Shown piece by piece: positions 17,582-30,101 of a DNA stretch of 64,000 nt (position 1 is the first letter of the stretch; the number at the start of each line of letters is the position of its first letter). The translations under genes were made by a program, and so were the position numbers. The notes below the pieces were generated by a model, which was given only the letters and a program-made list of their open reading frames with translations, had not been told where the DNA came from and did no database searches. Source of the stretch: Gallionella sp. (GTDB taxonomy: Bacteria; Pseudomonadota; Gammaproteobacteria; Burkholderiales; Gallionellaceae); contig DALYHV010000001.1 of NCBI GenBank assembly GCA_031970715.1, positions 9,251-73,250 on the forward strand, written 5' to 3'.

Positions 17582-18058
17582 TTAGCGTGCGATGGTATTG
17601 GTACGTTTGATTTTGTTCTGGAGCTGAATCAGTCCATACAAAAGGGCTTCTGCGGTCGGTGGGCAGCCCGGAATGTAAATATCCACCGGCACGATGCGAT
17701 CGCAGCCGCGAACCACAGAGTAAGAGTAGTGATAGTAGCCGCCGCCATTGGCGCAGGAGCCCATCGAAACCACCCAGCGTGGCTCTGCCATCTGGTCATA
17801 CACTTTGCGCAGTGCGGGTGCCATTTTATTGGTCAGCGTACCAGCGACAATCATCACGTCAGATTGACGAGGGCTCGGACGGAACACGATACCGAAGCGA
17901 TCCAAGTCATAGCGTGATGCACCAGCTTGCATCATTTCGACCGCACAACAGGCCAAGCCAAAAGTCATCGGCCACAGCGAACCCGTGCGGGTGTAATTGA
18001 TAATGGTGTCCAGCGTGGTCGTGACGACGCTTTTTTCCAATACACCTTCTATTCCCAT
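17582..18058 (-). CDS. nuoB: NADH-quinone oxidoreductase subunit B
   Basis: Start moved to the ATG at 18058 (MGIEGVLEK...). N2-cluster motifs [20 protein letters not shown] and PGCPP. Confidence 0.93.
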
Positions 18059-18405
18059 TCCAACGCCCCTTTCATCCATTCATAGACAAAACCGACTACC
18101 AGAATTGCCAAGAAAATCATCATGGAAACAAAACCAAACATGCCAATTTCCTTCAGCACGATGGCCCAAGGGAAAAGGAATGCAATTTCAAGATCGAAAA
18201 GGATGAACAGAATGGCGACGAGGTAATAGCGCACGTCAAACTTCATACGCGCATCTTCAAAGGCCTCAAAGCCGCACTCGTAAGGCGATAATTTTTTGCT
18301 ATCAGGACGGTTGGGAGCAACTAAGCGCCCCAAGACGACAGGAATGACACCAACAGCCAATCCGACGCAGATAAACAGCAGCACCGGAAAATAGTTTTCC
18401 AACAT
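18049..18405 (-). CDS. nuoA: NADH-quinone oxidoreductase subunit A
   Basis: Start moved to the ATG at 18405 ([11 protein letters not shown]...). 118-aa ND3-like membrane protein. Confidence 0.9.
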
Positions 18406-18500
18406 TTTGCTTCCCCCTGTATGTTTTTGACGATGATTGCTGCATTGCACAGCATCCCGCTTAATTATTTGTGTCTTAAACTGGCGCTGGGCCAGATTAT

Positions 18501-18585
18501 TGGTGCCGATGAGCAGACTCGAACTGCTACGCCTTGCGGCACTACCCCCTCAAGATAGCGTGTCTACCAATTTCACCACATCGGC
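18501..18585 (-). tRNA. tRNA-Leu (anticodon GAG)
   Basis: Reverse complement: GCCGATGTGGTGAAATTGGTAGACACGCTATCTTGAGGGGGTAGTGCCGCAAGGCGTAGCAGTTCGAGTCTGCTCATCGGCACCA. Acceptor stem GCCGATG/CATCGGC. Anticodon stem CTATC/GGTAG with loop TTGAGGG. Long variable arm. T-arm AGCAG-TTCGAGT-CTGCT. Encoded CCA. Confidence 0.92.
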
Positions 18586-18598
18586 TAAAACTCAAATT

Positions 18599-18931
18599 TT
18601 ATTTTGGAATTTCCTTGGATTTGGAATTGTCCACGGGCGCAGGCACAGGTGCCGACTTCTTGATCGCGTTTACTTTGTCCATGACGCCTTGTTGCTGCGC
18701 AGGATGAGACGAAAAATAGGTCAGCGATAAACTGGTCACGAAAAAAACACCCGCAGCAACCGCAGTACTACGACTCAGGAAATTCGCCGAGCCACTGGAG
18801 CCAAACAGGCTGCCGGCAGATCCGGTGCCAAATGCGGCGCCCATGTCCGCACCTTTGCCATGTTGCATCAAAACTAACGCTACCAATACCACGGCGGTCA
18901 GAATATGTACCACCAAAACAATTGTTTCCAC
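18599..18931 (-). CDS. secG: preprotein translocase subunit SecG
   Basis: 110 aa. [34 protein letters not shown] is a typical SecG Gly-rich loop between two TM helices. Confidence 0.9.
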
Positions 18932-18945
18932 TCAAAACTCCAAAA

Positions 18946-19701
18946 TCAAACTTGACCTGCGCGACAAATCGCCAGGAACTCTTCAGCCACCAGCGAAGCG
19001 CCGCCTATCAGGCCGCCATCAATGTCCGGCATGGCAAACAATTCTGCTGCGTTACCTGCCTTGACACTACCGCCATACAGTATAACCAATTCTGCGGCAA
19101 TTTGCTGGTTTGCGGCAGCGATGCGCTGACGAATGAACGCATGCACGGCTTGGGCTTGTTCGGAAGTGGCGGTCTTGCCGGTGCCAATCGCCCAAACGGG
19201 TTCATAAGCCACGACCGCGCCTTGCAAGGCTTCAACGCCTGCCAACTGGGTTAGGGCGTCAATTTGTTCGGCGATCACCGCTTCGGTCACGCCAGCTTCA
19301 CGTTGCTCCAGTGTTTCGCCCACGCACAGGATGGGTACGAGGCCGCCTTGTTTGGCAGCGAGGAATTTTTCCGCCACCAAGTGGCTGCTTTCAGCGTAGT
19401 AAGTGCGACGTTCGGAGTGACCAACGATGGCGTAGGTGCAACCAAAGTCTTTCAGCATGGCGGCGGATACTTCGCCGGTGTAGGCGCCTTTGTCCAACTG
19501 GTGTACATCCTGCGAACCCCAAGCGACATTGCTGCCGGACAGGGTGGCTTGTGCTTGGGCCAGATAGGGGAAGGGGGCGCAGAGGGCGCAATCGACGTTG
19601 TTCAACGATGCGGCGCCCTCGCGCACGGCCTGTAACAGGGCGGCGTTTTGAGCCAAATTGCCGTGCATTTTCCAGTTGCCTGCTACCAGTTTGCGACGCA
19701 T
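18946..19701 (-). CDS. tpiA: triose-phosphate isomerase
   Basis: 251 aa. [17 protein letters not shown] and [10 protein letters not shown] signature blocks. Confidence 0.95.
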
Positions 19702-19942: not shown

Positions 19943-20977
19943 TTAGCCGTTTTGCGCTGCCAGTTGCTGGGTCAGCACCACCAGTTGTTCCAAGCGCGCC
20001 TTGGCGGCACCGCTGGCAATGGCTTCGCGGGCCTGTTCCACCCCATCGGCCAGCGTGTCCGCTAGTCCGGCCAAATAGATGCTGGCCCCAGCGTTCAGCA
20101 GCACGATATCACGCGCCGGGCCGGGCTGGTTGTCCAGCACGCCCAGCAGCATGTCCCGCGAGGCTTCTACATCGCGGGCGTGCAAGGTCGATAATTCGGC
20201 GGTTTGCAGGCCGAACTGCTGCGGATGTAGGGTGTATTCGTGCACTTCGCCGTCCTTCAACTCTGCCACCAGCGTTTTGCCGCTCAGGGTAATTTCGTCC
20301 AGCCCGTCCTCGCCATGCACAATCAGTGCCCGGCGGCTGCCCAGACGATGCAGCACCCGCGCCTGTATCCCCACCAAATCGGGATGGAACACCCCCATCA
20401 GTTGCTGCTTGGCCCCGGCGGGATTGGTCAGCGGGCCGAGGATGTTGAACAGCGTGCGCACGCCCAACTCGCGTCGCACTGGCGCGGCATGTTTCATGGC
20501 GCTGTGATAATTCGGCGCGAACATAAAGCCGAAACCGACCTGCGCGATACACTGCGCCGTCTGCGCCGGGGTCAGGTTGATATGAATGCCCAGCGCCTCC
20601 AGCACATCCGCGCTGCCGGATTGCGACGACACCGAGCGCCCGCCGTGCTTGGCCACCTTGGCTCCCGCTGCTGCTGCCACAAACGCCGCCGCCGTGGAAA
20701 TGTTGAAAGTATGCGCCCCGTCGCCGCCCGTGCCGCAGGTATCCACCAGACGCGGATCATCCGCCAGCGCCACCTTGGTGGATAACTCGCGCATCACCGT
20801 CGCCGCCCCGGCGATTTCGCCGATGGTTTCCTTTTTGATGCGCAGCCCGGTAATAATCGCCGCAATCATCACCGCCGACACCTCGCCGCCCATGATCTGG
20901 CGCATCAGCGCCACCATTTCGTCGTGGAAAATTTCGCGGTGTTCGATGATGCGCTTCAAAGCCTCTTGTGGTGTCAT
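19943..20977 (-). CDS. trpD: anthranilate phosphoribosyltransferase
   Basis: 344 aa. [28 protein letters not shown] and GPLTNPAGA motifs. Confidence 0.95.
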
Positions 20978-21543
20978 GGTTTACCCTCCAGAAAATTTTT
21001 CAGCATGGCATGCCCATGCTCGGTCAGAATGGATTCCGGGTGAAACTGCACCCCGTGTACCGCCAGCGTCTTGTGCCGCACGCCCATGATTTCGCCGTCG
21101 TCCGTCCAGGCGGTGACTTCCAGACAATCCGGCATGGTCTCGCGCTCAATCACCAGCGAATGGTAGCGCGTGGCAGTAAAGGGACTGGGCAGCCCGGTAA
21201 ACACGCTGCTGCTGTGATGATGAATCGGCGAAGTCTTGCCGTGCATCAACTGCTTGGCATGAATAATCCGCCCGCCAAACGCCTGGCCGATACTCTGGTG
21301 CCCCAGACACACGCCCAGAATCGGAATTTCCCCGGCAAAACGCTGAATCGTCGGCACCGACACCCCCGCCTCATTCGGCGTACACGGCCCCGGCGACAGC
21401 ACAATCCGCGCCGGCCTCAGCGCCGCAATTTGTTCCAGCGAAATCTGGTCATTCCGATGCACCACCACCTCTTCCCCCAGCTCCGCAAAATACTGCACCA
21501 GGTTGTAAGTGAAGGAATCGTAATTGTCGATCATCAATAACAT
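20974..21543 (-). CDS. trpG: anthranilate synthase component II / aminodeoxychorismate synthase glutamine amidotransferase
   Basis: Start moved to the ATG at 21543 ([19 protein letters not shown]). Catalytic GVCLGHQ and FHPES blocks. 4-nt overlap with trpD. Confidence 0.93.
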
Positions 21544-21650
21544 AAACACTCCAAAGGGAAAGGTCGGCTCGAAAATGCCGTGTGCAGCTTTTCCAAGACT
21601 CCCAACAAACGGCAAACGGGCGCGATTATCGCAGCGAGTGGCGGGGGCGT

Positions 21651-22073
21651 CTAATTCATTTGCTGCTCATGCCGCAGCAGCGTACCGGTGAATTGCAGGA
21701 AATCTTCCAGATGCTCGGTAATCACGCTAACCACGATGGGGATGAGCAAACTTTGGTAGTCATGCACGGCCAGATTGCGGAAGCCGACCATTTTTTTCAG
21801 CGATTCCGCCAGTGGCAAGTTAATCCGTCCCGCCTGCGCCAGTAAGTCAAACACTTGGCGCGCACTTTGCGGCAAGCCCAACTTGTCGCGCCGAATCAGG
21901 TGATGTCCCAAATCCAGCGCCGCCTCGCATGCCCGCTGAATGTTCAAAATCGCCGCATCCTGGCGCGAATAATCGGTCGCAAAATTCGCCCCCGCAGCGG
22001 CATACTCCTCGTGCACCCGCGCCACGCAGCGTTCAATGCTCGCTACCTTGTTCAACACCACATCATCGACCAT
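21651..22073 (-). CDS. hepT: HepT-like (DUF86/HEPN) toxin
   Basis: Start moved to the ATG at 22073 ([16 protein letters not shown]...). RX4HXY motif present as RNLAVHDY. Overlaps the upstream nucleotidyltransferase gene by 11 nt. Confidence 0.8.
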
Positions 22074-22497
22074 ACACCCTCCCATTTTGCGCAATATCGG
22101 CCAGCAACGCCGCCCGCCCCGCATCCAGCCGGATTTTTTCGCCCAGCACAAAACACTCGAACAACCCGGCTGCGGGTTCGCTGGCCCACAAGCGCTGTCC
22201 TTGCGTTAGCACCTGGTACTGCATCACCGTGGTCGCGGCGCGCAAATCCAGCAAATCGACCTCGCAGCCCAACCGCTCCGCCAATTCGCTCGCCAACGTC
22301 CACAACTGCAACGGCTCGGCATACCCCGCCACCAGCACCGCCAAATCCAGATCGCTATCCGCCCGCGCCGTGCCCTGAATCCGGCTGCCAAAGGCGTAAA
22401 TCGCCAACACCTGCGGCAGGGCATGGCGCAAAACCTGCACCACCGCACCGTTGGTGGACAATGCAGATTCGATAATTTCGATTGTGCAGCGACTCAT
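22063..22497 (-). CDS. mntA: MntA-like minimal nucleotidyltransferase antitoxin
   Basis: Start moved to the ATG at 22497 (MSRCTIEIIESALS...). GS-x10-DxD motif as GSRIQGTARADSDLDL. Precedes hepT as in canonical pairs. Confidence 0.8.
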   Translation of the reverse strand: MSRCTIEIIESALSTNGAVVQVLRHALPQVLAIYAFGSRIQGTARADSDLDLAVLVAGYAEPLQLWTLASELAERLGCEVDLLDLRAATTVMQYQVLTQGQRLWASEPAAGLFECFVLGEKIRLDAGRAALLADIAQNGRVYGR

Positions 22498-22614
22498 TGG
22501 ACACCCCAAATTTTGAACCGGCGGTAATGTACTGCAATGTGCCGCATAAACCAAACCGCAGCGTCATCACATGGCAAATACTTGTCCGCATAAAGGTTGA
22601 TTGTCACCAGGTTG

Positions 22615-22666
22615 CATACCAGACCTGCCATATAATTCCACCGCGCAGCCAATTCAATCTGGTATG
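22615..22666 (+). promoter_or_regulatory. 9-bp perfect inverted repeat bracketing a TATAAT hexamer just upstream of the orphan gene
   Basis: CATACCAGA (22615-22623) and TCTGGTATG (22658-22666) are exact reverse complements. TATAAT lies at 22631-22636 between them, and the ATG of the large gene is at 22674. Function not established. Confidence 0.3.
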
Positions 22667-22673
22667 ACTACAA

Positions 22674-25600
22674 ATGGCCAAGAAGAAGAAATTAAGCAAT
22701 CCCTTTTCCACCGGCGGTGGCGGTGTTCATTTTGAAGCACATGTCCAAGCCAGTTTTGTTGCGTTAATGCTCACTGGTGGTCATGCTCCCTGCCTTCCCT
22801 GCTGGCCCATTCGGAAAGTCAAACTTCAGGGCAAGATTGACGGCTTCGATACAGATGACCTTGTTGTTTTCGTAGAAGATACGAACAGCAAGGAGCAACG
22901 GAAACTCCTCGGACAGATCAAACATTCTGTTGCTATCACTCAGGGCAGCACCTTGTTTGGCGAAGTGATACAAGCCGCTTGGAATGACTTAACAATCCCA
23001 AGGTATTCACGAGAGGTAAAGATGTTATTGCCCTGATTACAGGATCACTCGGCACGACCGATGCACACAACGTCCAATGGATACTGAGCCAAGCAAGACA
23101 TACCAAGAGCGTTGATGAATTTTTCAGAAACGTCCAGCAGGCAAATTTTAGTCCCGCCAAAAGTGCTGAAAAACTGGCGGTCATTCAGTACCACCTGAAA
23201 ACTGTAAACGGCGGTAACGATGTTTCAAGGGACGACCTTTATGAGTTCCTGAACCACTTCCATCTACTCGGCTATGATCTTGGCAACGAGTTCGGTGTTG
23301 TCCTGTCTCTGCTGCACTCCCACATTTCCCAGTTCCAGCAACAGTCTCCACAATGGGTTTGGTCTCGAATTGTCGATATTGTACAAACCTGGAATCAGGA
23401 CGCTGGCACGGTCACTCCTGACAAGTTGCCAGATGATCTTCTGGAAGCATTTAAACAAAAAACTGTGGCAAAAATGCCCGAAGAATTCAAGGTAGCACAG
23501 GAACAACCTAAAACCGATTGGACTCATCACCCGGATGCCACCCATCTGGCCTTGGCGATTCTGATTGGCGCTTGGCAAGACAATAGTCAAAGTGACCGTG
23601 AAGCGATAACCCAGTTTCTCGGCATCCGTTATGACGAATGGCTAACGAAGGCGCGGGAATTATTACACTGCCCTGATAGCCCGTTGTCCATCAATAATGG
23701 CACCTGGAAAGTTGTTAATCGCGCCGAGCTTTTCTCCCTGCTGGGATCGCGCATTCTGGATCAGAACCTTGATACGTTTAGATTGCTGGCTGTTTCCGTG
23801 CTAAAAGAGCCAGACCCCGCCTTTGAACTGCCCGCCGAAGAACGTTACGCAGCAAACATTCATGGCAAGGTGCTGAAATGTTCTCACGTGTTGCGAAATG
23901 GCATTGCCGAAGGTTTGGCTATCTTGGGTAGCCAGCCGGAATCAGGCACGAACTGTTCGCAGCGAAAAGCTGAAGCAACCTGCATATTGGTGATACGTGC
24001 ACTTTTGATGGATGCCGATTGGGTTTTGTGGGGCAGCCTGAGTAATTTACTGCCTACCTTGGCTGAAGCCGCGCCCGGTGAATTTCTTAATGCAGTCGAA
24101 AATGCGCTGCGCCTGACGCCCTGCCCCTTTGATACGCTTTTTTCTCAGGAAGGTAGTGGCATCACCGGCAACAATTATTTGACTGGCCTGCTTTGGGCGT
24201 TGGAAGGATTAGCTTGGGATGAGCAATATCTGGTTCATGCCTGCGTCATACTTGCCGAGCTTGCCAGCCATGACCCCGGTGGCAGATGGACTAATCGCCC
24301 ATCCAATTCGTTGAAAACCATTTTGCTACCTTGGCTGCCACAAACGCTGGCTCCTGTTGAAAAGCGCAAGGTGGCAGTGAGAACCATTCTTAATGAATGG
24401 CCAGATATCGCCTGGAATTTGATTATTCAGCTTCTCCCTAATCAGTTCCAAACCTCCACCGGGTCGTACAAATCCCGTTGGCGCAAAACCATCCCCAAAG
24501 ATTGGGAAAACGTTACACATCAGGAATACTGGCAGCAAATTTCTTTTTATGCAGAACTGGCCGTGGCTACCGCAGGCCAAGATGCCGTTCAACTTTCAAC
24601 ATTGATCGACCATTTTGATAGCCTGCCTGAACCTGCTGTTGAACAGCTTCTCCAAGTTCTCTCCTCCCAGTCCATTGCAGCACTGCCTGAAGAGCAACGA
24701 CGCTTGATTTGGAACCATCTCACGAAATTCACCAACAAATATCGGCGCTTCTCTGATGCAAAAGGGGTGTTGCCCGACGAGCTGATTACCCGCATTGAAC
24801 AAGTTGCCAAGAAACTCGCGCCTCTCAACCCGTTCCATTTATATCAACACCTTTTTACCGATCATGATGCGGATCTTTACGAAAAGGGGGAAAACTGGGA
24901 GGAGCGGCGAAACAAACTCGAAACAAAACGTGAAACGGCCATTACAACAATCTTTCAGCAACAAGGGGCGGAGAGAGTCATCCAGTTTGCCGAATCTGTC
25001 TCTTTACCTGGCCAGGCAGGCTACACACTTGGCGCTCTCCACGATTCAATCATTGAAAAAAATCTGCTGCCTCGCTTTCTGGATGCTGCGGAGAATAACC
25101 GGATGGCGTTGGTGAGCGGCTTTATCCGGCGACGTCACCACCTCAAAGGCTGGGAGTGGTGCGACGCCATCGATAAATCCGACTGGACACCGGAACAGAC
25201 CGCGCAATTCTTGGCTTATTTGCCGTTTACCAAGGAAGCCTGGGTACGTGCGCCTGAATGGTTACAAATACACGAAAAAGAATACTGGATCCGTACCCAC
25301 GCAAATGTTTGGACAGCAGAGGGTGACTATTCATTTGCGATTGAAAAACTCCTTGCCCATGGCAGGCCGCATGCTGCCATCAATTGCTTGTACAGAATGT
25401 GCTATGACAAGCAGCCAATCGATACGAATCAATGTGTTCGTGCATTGCTCACAGCACCTTCCTCCAGCGAACCCGGCTACGCCATGGACGGGTACCACAT
25501 TGTTGAACTGATCAAGTTCCTTCAGGCCGAGCCTTCGGTTAACCAGGACGACCTCTTTAGAGTCGAGTGGGCTTATGTCCCCTTGCTCGATCGTCATAGA

Positions 25601-26212
25601 GACGCTGCGCCCAAACTTCTTGAAAGCAGACTGGCCAATGACCCCGCATTCTTTTGCGAGGTAATTCGACTGATCTACCGATCCAAGAAAGAAAATCAGC
25701 CATCAAGAGAGCACACCGAGGAATCAAAGGCCATCGCAACAAATGCTTGGCGGCTGTTGCATGAATGGAAGACACCGCCTGGAACCCAAAAAGATGGGAC
25801 ATTCAGCGCAGCGCATTTCACCGCATGGTTGCAAAAGGTCAAAGAGGTCTGTGTGGAATCCGGCCACTTGGAAGTTGCACTCGGCAGTATCGGGGAAGTA
25901 TTGACACATGCCCCACCCGATCCTGGCGGATTATGGATACATCACGCTGTCGCTGCTGCATTGAACGATCGTGAGACTGATGACATGCGTAACGGGTTTA
26001 GAACCGGGATATACAACTCTCGCGGCACTTATTGGGTTGATCCAAGCGGCAAACCCGAAATGGCGTTGGCTGAACAGTTTCGACATAAAGCCGAAGAAAT
26101 TGAGAACGCTGGCTTTCAGCGCTTTGCCGTCACCTTGAAAAGTTTGGCGAGTAGCTTTGAACGAGAGGCGGAACAAGTAATCAGGGAACACCAAAATCGG
26201 GACGATGATTAG
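22674..26212 (+). pseudogene. large orphan gene (about 1,179 codons) interrupted by one frameshift; nuclease-like N-terminus plus long helical body
   Basis: The frame-3 ORF 22674..23036 and the frame-2 ORF ending at 26212 form one reading unit. Frame 2 is open from 22988, well upstream of the track's first Met at 23426, and reads LNNPKVFTRGKDVIALITGSLGTTDAHNVQWILSQARHTK... The two frames overlap only over 22988-23036. GC is visibly lower than the flanks. Confidence 0.65.
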
Positions 26213-26262
26213 CAAATGAAAATTCGACCGCCATTCACTACCGGCACGGTACTTGGCACCTG

Positions 26263-26313
26263 CTAACCATTCGCACCGAACATCATGCGCTTGGCGACGA
26301 AGCGTTTGGCCAG
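26263..26313 (-). other. orphan fragment: last 16 codons plus stop of a UbiH-family gene
   Basis: The reverse strand reads LAKRFVAKRMMFGANG*, identical to the C-terminus of the gene at 53437..54744. 44/51 nt are identical to 54694-54744 and all 7 differences are synonymous. There is no similarity upstream of the Leu codon. Confidence 0.8.
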
Positions 26314-26408
26314 CAGCGCGAAGTTTAATCTGAGGTGAAATTCAGGGTGCGCATGGCTGCCGGATTCGGGTTTGTCGCAGAAAGGGGTAAGTGAGTGTCG
26401 TTCTGTGG

Positions 26409-27341
26409 TTAAACCACGCCCGCCTTTTCCGCCTGTTCGTCGGCAAAGTAGCTGGAGCGCACCATGGGGGCGCAGGCGGCGTGGTCGAAGCCCATGTCTT
26501 TGGCCGCTTGTTCCAGCATGGCGAAGGTTTCCAGTGGGGCGTAGCGCAGCACCGGCATGTGGCCGTCGGAGGGTTGCAGGTATTGGCCGATGGTCAGCAT
26601 GTTGACGCCGTGGGCGCGCAAATCACGCATGACTTCCAACACTTCTTCATCGGTTTCGCCTAGGCCCAGCATCAGGCCGGATTTGGTGGGAACGTTGGGA
26701 AAGCGGGTTTTGAAGTCTTGCAACAGTTTCAGCGAATGGACGTAATCGGCACCGGGGCGGGCCAGTTTGTACAGACGCGGCACGGTTTCCAGATTGTGGT
26801 TCAGCACGTCGGGCAAGCCGGTGGCCAAGGCGTCCAAGGCTTCGTTCAAGCGGCCACGAAAATCCGGCACCAGAATTTCCAGCCGGGTGTCGGGCGAACT
26901 GGCGCGAATCGCGGACAAACAATCCACGAAATGTTGCGCGCCGCCGTCACGCAGGTCGTCCCGATCCACGCTGGTAATCACCACGTATTTCAAATTCAGC
27001 AAGCCAATGGAGCGCGCCAGATTGGCCGGTTCGTCTGGGTCGGGCGGCTGTGGTTTGCCGTGCGCCACGTCGCAAAACGGACAGCGCCGGGTGCAAATGT
27101 CGCCCAGGATCATGAAGCTGGCGGTGCCTTTGCTGAAACATTCGCCGATGTTAGGGCAGGAGGCTTCTTCGCACACGGTGTGCAACTGGTGCTCGCGCAG
27201 CAGGCGTTTCACGTCGTGGTAGCCGGTGCCGCTACCGGCTTTGACGCGAATCCATTGTGGCTTGCGCAGGCGCTCGGCCAGCGGGACGATTTTGATCGGG
27301 TTGCGCGCGGTTTTGGCCGCGCCAGTTTGTTTTTCGGACAT
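26409..27341 (-). CDS. lipA: lipoyl synthase
   Basis: Start moved to the ATG at 27341 ([10 protein letters not shown]...). Cysteine motifs [12 protein letters not shown] and [10 protein letters not shown]. 310 aa. Confidence 0.93.
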
Positions 27342-27360
27342 GGCGATGACGGTGCGGAAT

Positions 27361-28326
27361 TTAGGGGAAAGGCCGATGGTGGGCATACCATTCGGCGGTG
27401 AGTTCCAGTCCTTGCTGGCTGGTGTACGGCGGTTGCCAGCCCAGTTGCTGGCGAATCTTGCGGTCGTCGATACGTAGTGAGCCAAAAAGTCGCTCGGCGG
27501 TTTCCTGTTTGCCCAGCCAGTTGGCGACTCTTTTCATCAGCAGCGGTGAGATGCTCAGGCTGTGGTTGCGGCGGTGCATCACGGTGGATAGGGCGTTGAA
27601 CAATTGTGCTGTCGAAGGCGCGGTGCCGTCGCTGACCAGATACGTTTGTCCGGCGGCGGCAGGATGGGTGGCGCAGGTAATCAGCGCATCGACAAAGTTG
27701 CCCAGGTACAGCAGGCTGCGGGCATTGTCGGTGACGGCGCGTAGCGGCATGGGCCATTCCTGTTCGGCTGCATTCAACAGGCGCAGAAAATTGCCTTTCA
27801 CACCAGGGCCGTACATCAATGGGGGGCGCACGATCACCACTTCCAGGCCGGTTTCAGCGGACACGCGTTGCAACATTTGCTCGGCTTCCCATTTTGAGAC
27901 GCCGTAAGGGTCTTCGGGTGCCGGGGTATCTTGCTCGGTGTAGGCTTGGCCCGGTGCCGTGCCTTCGCCATTGACCTTGATGGAGCTGACAAACACCAGG
28001 CGCTGCACGCCAGCCTGAGCGGCTTGGCGGGCCAGATTTTCCGTGGCAGCGACATTGATGTGGCGAAATTCTGCCAGCGGGTTTAAGGCTTGGTCGCGCA
28101 TGATGTGTACCCGTGCGGCGCTATGTATTACCACGCCCACGTCTTTCAGGGCGGTACGCCAGTCGGTGTCCGGCCCCAGGTCGCCGATGGGCGCAATTTC
28201 TACCCGTGGCATGTGCCATTTACGATTGCGCACCGCCGCCCGCACGGTTTGACCGCGTTGCAGCAATTCACGACATAAATCAGTGCCAACAAAACCATTA
28301 GCACCCGTAATCAGAAAACGAGGCAT
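27361..28326 (-). CDS. NAD-dependent epimerase/dehydratase (SDR) family protein
   Basis: 321 aa. N-terminal ITGANGFVG Rossmann motif. Last sugar-related gene of the polysaccharide operon. Confidence 0.8.
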
Positions 28327-28334
28327 GACATCTC

Positions 28335-29075
28335 CTAGGGTAAGCGGCGAAATACATCCGAGGTGAAAAAGCGCAACATGCTGCCCAGGTGCATGCGCAG
28401 GTAACGCAGGTTGCGGTGGCTGCTGCGTTGGGCGGCATGAACGACCTTGACCTCATTGCAGCGGGCAATGCGCTCGCCCGCCAGCTTGAGGCGAGCGCAC
28501 AGATCCACGTCTTCGTAGTACAAAAAATAACGTTCGTCAAAACCATGCAGGCGGCGGAACAGCGTGCTGGGCAGGAGCAGGAACATGCCCGCCAACCAGT
28601 CGGGATAGGTTAACGGCCCCTTACCGGGGGGAATGGTGGCAGATTGACCACCAAATACCTTGGCAATGATTTCGCCCGGTCTGGGGAAACGCCGCGCGCT
28701 GTCTTCGCACGCGCCTTCCGGGCTGAGCACCATGGGGGCGATCAGGCCGAGGTTATGGTTGTCGAGGTAATGCAGCAGGGTGGGAAATGGGTTGTCATGC
28801 AGACGAATATCGGGATTCAGGATGCAAAAATGCGCGCCCTTGGCATAGGCAAAAGCGGCATTATGGTTTGCCCCGAAACCTTTTGGACTGATGTTGCGCA
28901 ACACGCGCAACTGGAAACTGAATTGCGCCGGGTCGAAAGGCAGGCTTTCTTCCAGATTGAGGGTGAGCAACACTTCCATGTCCTGCTGCGGGCAATGTTG
29001 TTGCAAGTCATTCAGTAAGTCGTGCACCAGTGCGGCTTGGCGGTGGCTGACGATGGAAACAGATAAGTCGGGCAT
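28335..29075 (-). CDS. glycosyltransferase family 2
   Basis: 246 aa. GT-A-type layout (VSIVSHRQ..., FDERYFLYYEDVDLCARL block). Confidence 0.75.
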   Translation of the reverse strand: MPDLSVSIVSHRQAALVHDLLNDLQQHCPQQDMEVLLTLNLEESLPFDPAQFSFQLRVLRNISPKGFGANHNAAFAYAKGAHFCILNPDIRLHDNPFPTLLHYLDNHNLGLIAPMVLSPEGACEDSARRFPRPGEIIAKVFGGQSATIPPGKGPLTYPDWLAGMFLLLPSTLFRRLHGFDERYFLYYEDVDLCARLKLAGERIARCNEVKVVHAAQRSSHRNLRYLRMHLGSMLRFFTSDVFRRLP

Positions 29076-29078
29076 GAT

Positions 29079-30101
29079 TTAAAGCAGGGTAATGAACGCA
29101 AACACCGCCCAGCGCGCAGCGGGCAGATGTGGACTAATCAAGTGCTGGCGCAGCAGGCTGACCCGCCGCCAGCGGGGTTGTTCGGCAATGTGGGCAAATA
29201 GCGTGATTTGCGTGCGCACCTCCGCCGCCAGCGGCGGTGTATCGAGTCGTTGCAGCAAGGATTGTGCTTGTTGCACATTGCGCCGCATGATGTCTTGATA
29301 ACGCCGCCAGGCCGCCACATTCAGGGCCTGACGCATACGTTGCAAACGCGACGACGCCCCCACGGCATTGCGACCATGCTGGCGGTAATTGACCAGCGCT
29401 TGTGGCAAGTAACCGATTTTGCCACAACTGGCGGCCAGTAATGCCAGCCACCAATCGTGCATGCGCACGCCAACCGGCAACGGGGCGGCCAGTTTGAGCA
29501 AAGCCTGGTTAATGAGTGTGGCACAGCCGGTGATCTGGTTTTGGCACAGCAAAACGCCCAAATCGGCCTGCGTCGGGAATAACCCGGAGGAGGCCACAAA
29601 GGAGGGTGCCAGCGGCTGTAAATCGGCGTCTACCAGGGCCAGGTCGCTGTGTACCAGCAACGGCGTTGTGCGGCCATGTTCTGCTTCCAGACGTTGCATG
29701 GCGGCCAGTTGGCAGGCCAGTTTGTGGTTGGGCCAATCGTCGTCCTGGTCGGCAAAAAACAGATAGTCCACGGCGTGTTGTGCTGCGTAGTGCAGCAGGG
29801 CGGCAAAGTTGCCGACGGCGCCAGGTTCGCCGGGGAGGTCTGGCAGCAAGTGGATGCGCGGATCCTGTGCGGCCATGGCTTGCACGCGCGCCACGGTGTC
29901 ATCACGCGAGTGGTCATCGCGCACGTATAACTGCCAGTCTGACCAGGTTTGCTGACAAATGCTGCGAATTTGGTGTTCGATATATGCGGCACCGTTGTAG
30001 CTGGCCAGAACGATCCACACTTGGCTGCCGGCACGCGGCATCTCGTCGCGGATGGGCAGGACAACGGGCTGTGTGAGCGAAGACAGTGTGCGCATTACCA
30101 C
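29079..30101 (-). CDS. glycosyltransferase family 2
   Basis: 340 aa. IVLASYNGAAYIEHQIRSICQQTW...YVRDDHSRDDT and FFADQDDDW (DxD-like) blocks. Confidence 0.75.
   Translation of the reverse strand: MVMRTLSSLTQPVVLPIRDEMPRAGSQVWIVLASYNGAAYIEHQIRSICQQTWSDWQLYVRDDHSRDDTVARVQAMAAQDPRIHLLPDLPGEPGAVGNFAALLHYAAQHAVDYLFFADQDDDWPNHKLACQLAAMQRLEAEHGRTTPLLVHSDLALVDADLQPLAPSFVASSGLFPTQADLGVLLCQNQITGCATLINQALLKLAAPLPVGVRMHDWWLALLAASCGKIGYLPQALVNYRQHGRNAVGASSRLQRMRQALNVAAWRRYQDIMRRNVQQAQSLLQRLDTPPLAAEVRTQITLFAHIAEQPRWRRVSLLRQHLISPHLPAARWAVFAFITLL

Follow-up and report, generated by a model that had tools for sequence, protein, structure and literature searches.

The window analysed here is a stretch of 64,000 nucleotides from the genome of a Gallionella sp. 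(assembly GCA_031970715.1, contig DALYHV010000001.1), and the gene in question occupies positions 22674 to 26212 of it, where the list of open reading frames (ORFs) shows two separate entries (Table 1). The original prediction, made from the letters of the window, was that these two ORFs are a single gene broken by one insertion or deletion, and this proved right. Frame 2 is open from 22988 to 26212, right after a TGA at 22985-22987, and on translation reads LNNPKVFTRGKDVIALITG...; its overlap with frame 3 is confined to 22988-23036, exactly as had been described. The conceptually repaired product, with the frame restored, was searched against 5.8 billion proteins and yielded more than 1,500 homologues, so the gene is not the "orphan" it was first taken for. 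Among the best 120 of these matches, nearly all are 1,173-1,196 aa long, with 73-79% identity and 99-100% coverage of the query; the exception, P0024, is a 912-aa ORF called from the same Gallionella genome. Because intact homologues of 1,176-1,182 aa span 100% of the repaired product, the two ORFs are one gene of about 1,180 codons.

Table 1. Features of the locus, in window coordinates.
Feature	Position	Strand	Description and basis
5' ORF	22674..23036	+	120 aa, frame 3; ORF list
3' ORF	23426..26212	+	928 aa from TTG, frame 2; ORF list
5' gene segment	22674..22990	+	Codons 1-105 and first two bases of codon 106, frame 3; aligns from the ATG with all homologues
1-nt deletion site	22990..22991	+	Third base of the Phe106 codon missing (TTC/TTT in homologues), frame shift -1
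3' gene segment	22991..26212	+	Codons 107-1179 and stop, frame 2
Predicted Cap4/LmuA-type PD-(D/E)xK nuclease core	22674..23047	+	aa 1-125, interrupted by the deletion; AlphaFold2 topology, invariant residues, Foldseek
Catalytic-motif codons	E21 22734-22736; D61/D62 22854-22859; Q81 22914-22916; K83 22920-22922	+
Helical adaptor half of head	23048..23527	+	aa 126-285; head-only AlphaFold2 model
Alpha-solenoid body, putative sensor module	23570..26209	+	aa ~300-1179; all-helical in AlphaFold2 model, portable across effectors
HepT toxin gene	21651..22073	-	Neighbour, outside the unit; PF01934 4.6e-26; NF047751 6e-45, 152 bits; 140-aa gene call in L009
MntA antitoxin gene	22063..22497	-	Neighbour, outside the unit; PF18765 2e-18; NF047752 1.4e-28, 98.8 bits; 144-aa gene call in L009
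9-bp inverted repeat around TATAAT	22615-22623 / 22658-22666; TATAAT 22631-22636		Read from sequence

When the DNA is aligned with that of eight homologues, a single nucleotide is seen to be missing, GAC-TT[C]-AAC, outside any homopolymer; the Phe codon at this site is uninterrupted in eight of eight aligned homologues and in full-length homologues generally. Could the missing base be a sequencing or assembly error, as the original prediction allowed, with the gene intact in the organism? A single base lost from an otherwise well-preserved ORF would fit an error, and so would a ratio of nonsynonymous to synonymous substitution (dN/dS) of 0.13-0.15 between the window copy and its homologues, equal to that of intact pairs. 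But the same DNA recurs, deletion included, in two ENA metagenome assemblies made from other samples (ERZ27299534 and ERZ5540423), whose contigs match window positions 20474-29212 and 22316-26990 at 100.000% identity and also carry the 912-aa ORF P0024. Since two independent assemblies carry the same deletion, it is a real mutation of the lineage; the lost C also stood between TT and AA, a context free of homopolymers, and disabling mutations are found in other family members too. We therefore hold an artefact to be very unlikely.

The deletion falls in codon 106 and cuts the predicted nuclease core, described below, between its helix 2 and its strand 4, and frame 2 offers no ATG, GTG or TTG start before 23426. 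Thus, the window copy is a pseudogene. Its inactivation must be recent, because the repaired protein retains 14 of 15 invariant positions and all near-invariant ones but one (the exceptions are Y1163F and P601S) and because its dN/dS is that of intact pairs. The two substitutions, P601S at 24509-24511 and Y1163F at 26156-26158, are accompanied by the loss of one codon after 24508 (DWENVTHQEY, against DWEKGVTHQEY in homologues), and together these changes may be early signs of relaxed constraint.

A broken gene is not necessarily a silent one, and the copy might still function, either as a two-part system or by ribosomal frameshifting across 22988-23036. Natural two-gene forms do exist in the family (a head of ~321 aa whose gene overlaps that of an 863-aa body), the deletion allele is present in three assemblies, nearly all of the conserved positions are intact as just described, and a product of 912-928 aa could be started from 23426, near the linker between head and body. 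However, the two-gene forms divide near aa 318, where the modules meet, whereas the break here is at aa 106, inside the core, and leaves a head that lacks strand 4 and the adaptor. The want of a start codon in frame 2 before 23426 counts against a functional copy too. Programmed -1 frameshifting was dropped, the overlap containing no X XXY YYZ slippery heptamer when read by eye and the homologues being uninterrupted. A functional window copy is, in our judgement, highly improbable.

In fact, inactivation is recurrent in this family. Other copies are disrupted by a stop codon (W576->TGA in L014:10001-13540; Q843->stop in L026:10001-13546), a Legionella copy (L047:10001-12935) is without aa ~26-215 and has thereby had its nuclease removed, and a decayed 5' remnant is found in Halotalea (L063:10001-11132), with a further remnant at L064.

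The protein that the intact gene would encode has two modules, which we call the head and the body. AlphaFold2 gave a full-length model from an 86-sequence alignment (predicted local distance difference test, pLDDT, 84.9; predicted template modelling score, pTM, 0.67) and a model of the head by itself, aa 1-285 (pLDDT 90.1, pTM 0.85). The core of the head folds in these models as alpha-beta-beta-beta-alpha-beta, with a(16-33), b(45-50), b(63-68), b(75-83), a(93-106) and b(118-123), and pLDDT is above 90 there, while residues 126-285 are mainly helical in the head-only model. E21 sits on helix 1, D61 and D62 just before strand 2, and Q81-x-K83 on strand 3. Across 86 diverse family members E21, Q52, D61, D62 and K83 are invariant and Q81 is conserved in at least 90%; E21, D61, D62, Q81 and K83 are all retained in the window copy. 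The E...D...(E/Q)xK motif that the original prediction had read in the head is thus a conserved one, and the three residues it picked out for mutation (D61, D62 and K83) are invariant.

Structural neighbours lead to the same fold. When the head-only model was compared with the PDB by Foldseek, the matches at E<=1e-3 were solely defence nucleases, all at probability 1.00. The best are LmuA 9hr5 (E 5e-5, TM 0.47-0.50), Cap4 6wan (E 1e-4) and the N-terminus of Avs3, 8dgc (E 1.8e-4), with TM scores of 0.42-0.50, and further ones are Cap4 6wam and 6vm6, LmuA 9nxx and the Hachiman complex structure 8zue. With LmuA and Cap4 the whole head can be aligned, over ~240-300 columns. The PD-(D/E)xK fold first suspected for the N-terminus is therefore borne out by model topology and by structural neighbours, and residues 1-285 are, on these models, a nuclease of the Cap4/LmuA/Avs3 type, presumably one that cleaves DNA.

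This head is portable. In a 1,720-aa protein from a Clostridia metagenome-assembled genome (MAG; L065:9977-15139), a head 46% identical over aa 4-264 precedes an nSTAND3 NTPase with the Walker A sequence GERGCGKSS, which is followed by an unrelated helical C-terminus of ~1,100 aa. This protein is an Avs-like relative that shares the same effector module. Homology between its C-terminus and the body of our protein was considered and rejected, since hhalign aligns the head alone (aa 4-264). Nuclease core and helical adaptor move together, both in nSTAND3 fusions and in stand-alone head genes.

The body is a very different object. It is predicted as an alpha-solenoid throughout, and the full-length model had Avs3 8dgc as its top Foldseek match (E 9e-5, global TM 0.13), the other matches of the body being generic HEAT/ARM solenoids (karyopherins, CAND1, CRM1, cohesin SA2), all with TM below 0.2. 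Neither a sequence search nor a family-profile search matched any PDB sequence, and the repaired protein had no match in Pfam, NCBIfam or PADLOC, with no NTPase, HNH or HEPN domain among Pfam families. A conserved Walker A is also missing: A/Gx4GK[ST] strings occur in 9 of the 86 members, at non-conserved places and by chance. A helical body with no NTPase, HNH or HEPN signature, as the original prediction described it, is accordingly what the model, Pfam and the Walker A survey return.

Searching 1.84 billion cluster representatives with phmmer revealed how widely this body is used. At E<=1e-3 the search returned 6,853 clusters (50% identity), many of which match aa ~280-1175 only and carry a different N-terminus. 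According to Pfam, the heads that replace the nuclease on the same ~880-aa body are GT4-conflict (2.6e-81), Metallophos, SIR2_2, PNP_UDP_1, FRG, SLFN_AlbA_2, DUF4062, TIR_2 and HTH_3; a further one matches DUF4145 weakly and has an RNxxxH motif seen by eye, which suggests a HEPN domain. The body itself could be aligned over 872-881 residues across 35 proteins of all head classes, at 40-53% identity (27-30% for the helix-turn-helix, or HTH, class), and residues invariant across the 35 include W301, D308, W345, S404, R408, E465, E511, W515, T558 and E966. Among eight alternative-head proteins run through PADLOC, four found a match, through their heads only (SIR2, TIR-like, PNP, metallophosphatase) and never through the body; the models matched are mostly for effectors or effector-associated proteins (pAgo-associated SIR2, bSEFIR, CBASS effectors). 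Interchangeable defence-effector heads on one conserved body are the signature of a modular immune receptor.

The two modules also exist as separate genes. At L067:7001-10547 a gene for a head of 321 aa runs 11 nt into the start of one for a body of 863 aa, and this body shares 53% identity with residues 318-1170 of the fused form. Toxin-antitoxin modules (PIN and ParDE) are found on the flanks of the pair. The databases also contain many heads (~303-330 aa) and bodies (~860 aa) that stand alone.

Two other kinds of N-terminus were met in this survey. Six proteins (P0211, P0212, P0217, P0233, P0263 and P0270) share a recurrent module of ~370 aa that has no Pfam or PADLOC match and carries the motifs PGWDG...FWEIGTG...KATDDY...FVFVTPR; its second half, which is common to the metallophosphatase-headed P0238, looks like a degenerate nucleotide-binding-type domain. 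In a large subfamily of ~1,353-aa proteins (L072:3663-7733, L073:152-4264) an XRE-type HTH_3 domain comes first and is joined by ~380 residues that have no annotation and by the same body, here 25-30% identical. Its hosts are Rhizobiales, Bradyrhizobium, Rhodanobacter and Shewanella plasmids, and its members are annotated "helix-turn-helix transcriptional regulator" or "HigA antitoxin", names that probably misdescribe them.

How does the gene travel? A scan of one genome per species returned 56 loci. The hosts include, among bacteria, Chlorobium, Desulfobacterota, many Gammaproteobacteria, Synechococcus, Planctomycetota, Verrucomicrobia, Victivallales, Acidobacteriota, Spirochaetaceae, Paenibacillus, Clostridia and Roseiflexaceae, and among archaea Methanoperedens, Methanoregula and Methanomassiliicoccales. 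At the nucleotide level, similarity to the window sets in no more than a few bases from the ATG (22674) and runs to the stop (26211) or just short of it, with no flank in common. The gene has a GC content of 0.498, against 0.572 for the rest of the window, and it keeps to about 50% (mostly 0.44-0.54) in all hosts while the flanks of those hosts range over 0.36-0.67; since this value is constant across hosts, the "low-GC islet" is the gene's own composition. Copies in different phyla are 75-90% identical, the synonymous divergence (dS) between the Chlorobium and the Victivallales copy is 0.20, and dN/dS of family pairs is 0.13-0.19. Such identity between phyla is remarkable for a 3.5-kb gene and suggests a very recent global spread. 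The horizontal acquisition proposed in the original prediction is thus strongly supported, by the uniform composition of the gene amid flanks of 36% to 67% GC as by the low dS. Widespread as it is, the gene is rare in E. coli: only 8 of 5,426 complete genomes have it, with one copy per genome. A tblastn search of the INPHARED phages found no match, and Foldseek of the full model against viral structures returned nothing at E<=1e-3; the gene is therefore not phage-encoded.

Conservation that runs exactly from ATG to stop, with no flanks in common and diverse insertion sites, is what a selfish mobile gene would also show, and the ORF could be read as a free-standing nuclease of the homing type. 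But no terminal repeats or target duplications accompany it, the body also occurs with effectors other than nucleases in place of this head, copies ride as cargo on integrative and conjugative elements (ICEs), plasmids and prophage ends, and there is one copy per genome, so that a homing gene appears extremely improbable. A mobile element with terminal repeats had itself been looked for and was rejected: similarity stops at the ORF ends, and the repeats found in the flanks, for example 16-nt arms at 21655 and 26205 with 2 mismatches, are no more than chance would give.

The surroundings of the gene vary from host to host. In the window it lies near trpG and lipA, with the HepT and MntA genes divergently upstream of it; both of these exceed the 60-bit equivalog cut-off of NF047751 and NF047752 (type VII toxin-antitoxin HepT/MntA). 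The MntA/HepT pair to which the original prediction had drawn attention is thus really there, but only this genome places it beside the gene: when the flanking ORFs of 46 loci were clustered all against all, no neighbour family came up at more than 3 loci, and none was SMC-like. With no neighbour family recurring beyond that, the gene is a single-gene unit. The inverted repeat around a TATAAT, the other upstream feature of the original prediction, is likewise present, but it does not exceed chance, about 10 such 9-bp repeats being expected per 64 kb by our own estimate, and a consensus promoter scan found no promoter on the + strand at 22615-22666.

Those surroundings of homologues that are telling belong to defence or to mobile elements. 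At L035 and L042 the gene lies between hsdS and hsdR, with overlapping start and stop codons, and related neighbours are found at L040 and L053. In an Arenicellales genome (L033) it lies, again with overlapping start and stop codons, between a BREX (bacteriophage exclusion) PglX-like methyltransferase gene and a PglZ-like gene (weak Pfam match), and by clustering two more loci (L050 and L032, Arenicellales) have PglX-like/PglZ-like neighbours in common with it. A homologue on the conjugative plasmid pSBAL11702 directly follows genes for an "Abi family protein" and a "super-infection exclusion protein B" (SieB), the one in Lonsdalea is ICE cargo, and that of E. coli A28 lies at the tail-fibre end of a lambdoid prophage, beside IS3. 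Among 135 immediately flanking ORFs at 36 loci, restriction-modification (R-M) families are the most recurrent. Together with the swapping of domains, these contexts support the defence-type architecture that the original prediction had suggested, and a defence function would fit it.

Other surroundings are less telling. In a RIFOXY Gammaproteobacteria MAG (L004:9275-14130) the gene lies inside a polysaccharide-biosynthesis cluster; unannotated small genes (137 aa and 76 aa) precede it, with a 30-aa ORF called between them in parallel assemblies, and a 196-aa winged-helix (HTH_24) ORF follows, overlapping its stop codon. This ORF and a 176-aa one downstream of the gene at L007 were considered as partners and dropped, as they have no Pfam family in common and neither falls in a multi-locus cluster. 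Elsewhere in the window, a second GC dip (0.46-0.51) at 18000-18999 surrounds a tRNA-Leu(GAG) gene (18501-18585, - strand), just upstream of a tpiA-like ORF. This tRNA-Leu was the only hit of a tRNA scan of the window, and an Rfam search of the window gave nothing.

How does the protein compare with known systems? In architecture it recalls Avs proteins (SeAvs3 8dgc, SeAvs7), in which an N-terminal Cap4-like PD-(D/E)xK effector precedes a large helical-repeat C-terminal region, a likeness of architecture only. Avs3 is both the top Foldseek match of the full model and a probability-1.00 match of the head, and the same head is fused to an nSTAND3 NTPase in the Clostridia relative. Unlike Avs, however, our protein lacks a STAND NTPase, Walker A/B motifs being absent and both Pfam and NCBIfam returning no NTPase domain, and its body has no sequence similarity to the C-terminus of the nSTAND3 relative and a global TM to Avs3 of 0.13.

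A plan without an NTPase is also that of DSR2 and Dsr1, single polypeptides with an N-terminal effector and a large helical putative sensor. In DSR2, a SIR2 domain joined to an alpha-solenoid, the C-terminal solenoid domain binds the phage tail tube protein (PMC11850899). Dsr1, which has no NTPase, shares the sensor of Avs7, which detects the phage major capsid protein, and the superfamily of this capsid sensor, 9,097 proteins with a bilobed tetratricopeptide repeat (TPR) architecture, has 20 or more types of effector and is marked by extensive horizontal gene transfer (PMC13581612). Many effectors on one body and extensive transfer, both described in that paper, are both seen here as well. 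The differences are that the head here is a nuclease and not a SIR2 NADase, SIR2_2 heads being confined to sister proteins such as P0190; that PADLOC-DB 2.0.0 has no match for our protein and matches P0190 through its SIR2 head only; and that DSR2 is absent from the top 50 structural neighbours of the full model. We considered equating the SIR2-headed relatives with DSR1 and dropped the idea, as PADLOC matches the SIR2 head, never the body. All the same, the body may be a distant member of the Avs7/Dsr1 capsid-sensor superfamily, and this is the main uncertainty about its novelty.

Cap4 of CBASS (cyclic oligonucleotide-based antiphage signalling system) and LmuA of Lamassu are the best structural matches of the head and have the same E...D...(E/Q)xK layout. 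Control of Cap4 lies with a SAVED domain and a cyclic oligonucleotide, that of LmuA with the LmuB/C SMC (structural maintenance of chromosomes) complex. Here, by contrast, no SAVED domain, CD-NTase, SMC partner or conserved neighbour is found, and an LmuB SMC-like partner is not among the recurring neighbours at the 46 loci. Accessory genes are also known to be embedded in type I R-M or BREX operons, for example that of the anticodon nuclease PrrC between hsd genes, or BrxU. The homologues between hsdS and hsdR or between PglX-like and PglZ-like genes, with their overlapping codons, recall this arrangement, but most copies, the window copy included, stand alone, and there is no relation to PrrC or BrxU in sequence or fold.

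In our reading, the intact gene moves horizontally and encodes a single-gene conflict protein of ~1,180 aa, most likely directed against phages or other mobile genetic elements, with a nuclease head and an NTPase-less alpha-solenoid, and the locus is a copy of it that was inactivated recently. We would give this reading a probability of about 0.7. The family most likely is an uncatalogued one of sensor-effector defence proteins that do without an NTPase. To explain how such a protein might work, we propose that the body serves as a sensor and as an autoinhibitory scaffold that holds the effector inactive. Once the body has recognised a conserved trigger derived from the invader, the protein would oligomerise, and its nuclease heads, now side by side, would be free to cleave DNA non-specifically. 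What leads us to this mechanism is that assembly switches on Cap4, LmuA and the nucleases of Avs proteins, and that DSR2 and Dsr1 couple a solenoid sensor to an effector. For the Avs7 nuclease in particular, activation has been described as assembly-dependent (PMC13581612). It is by analogy that we propose for our protein a trigger, oligomerisation, cleavage of DNA and a role in defence.

Several observations weigh against this reading. At the sequence level nothing supports Cap4: the repaired protein has no match to Pfam DUF4297, the Cap4 nuclease model, nor to any Pfam family at E<=0.1, so the Cap4-type assignment is one of structure and motif only. Every source that names the nuclease-headed form calls it a "hypothetical protein". 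Many homologues stand alone among housekeeping genes (HSP70, ribonucleotide reductase, tRNA synthetases), so that the defence association comes from a minority of loci and from domain logic. The body is unusually conserved and nearly indel-free, with invariant polar residues (D308, R408, E465, E511, E966), unlike fast-evolving sensors that recognise proteins; this argues for a conserved target or a small ligand, and it could mean that the body holds a catalytic or small-ligand site and is no sensor of phage proteins. Finally, the large XRE-type HTH-headed subfamily, annotated as transcriptional regulators, would fit general signal transduction too.

Taken together, these points could describe a family with no role in immunity at all: an enzyme, or a scaffold for general signal transduction or regulation, in which a ligand of the cell bound by the body sets off varied outputs, transcription through the HTH heads included. 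The high conservation and constant length of the body, its invariant polar residues, the HTH_3-headed "XRE regulators" and the many housekeeping loci would all be at home in such a family. But the repertoire of heads is that of classic cell-killing defence effectors (Cap4-type nuclease, SIR2, TIR, PNP, probable HEPN, Schlafen, metallophosphatase, GT4-conflict), and homologues are found inside type I R-M and BREX operons and next to Abi and SieB. The patchy distribution in E. coli, the recent transfer between phyla and the recurrent pseudogenisation also speak against a cellular housekeeping role. A non-immune family is thus unlikely, and we retain the conflict protein as the preferred reading.

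More tentatively, the body itself may matter beyond this one architecture. The ~880-aa body might be an undescribed NTPase-less recognition module, spread across bacteria and archaea in at least 6,800 clusters and unrelated to the DSR2 and Avs7/Dsr1 sensors, in which the constant length and the invariant D308, R408, E465, E511 and E966 would point to a conserved ligand-binding or catalytic site. Such a module would gate at least 10 head types (nine effector-like and HTH), also work as a two-gene split, and constitute a new major class of prokaryotic innate immune receptor. We found no description of the family in the literature, its E. coli homologue WP_044867624 included, and the domain-centric NAR 2026 screen excluded single-gene systems. 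The family is absent from Pfam, NCBIfam and PADLOC-DB 2.0.0, and its members are annotated only as "hypothetical" or, for one subclass, as "XRE regulator".

The copy in Gallionella is dead, yet it points to a very large superfamily in many bacterial phyla and three archaeal lineages. If our larger proposal is true, a widespread class of NTPase-free receptors would be added to the catalogue of prokaryotic immunity; if the body instead turns out to be homologous to the Avs7/Dsr1 capsid sensor, it is that class which would be greatly extended. The proposal would also explain solitary islets of atypical GC such as the one in the window, and would offer a compact pair of sensor and nuclease for mechanistic study.

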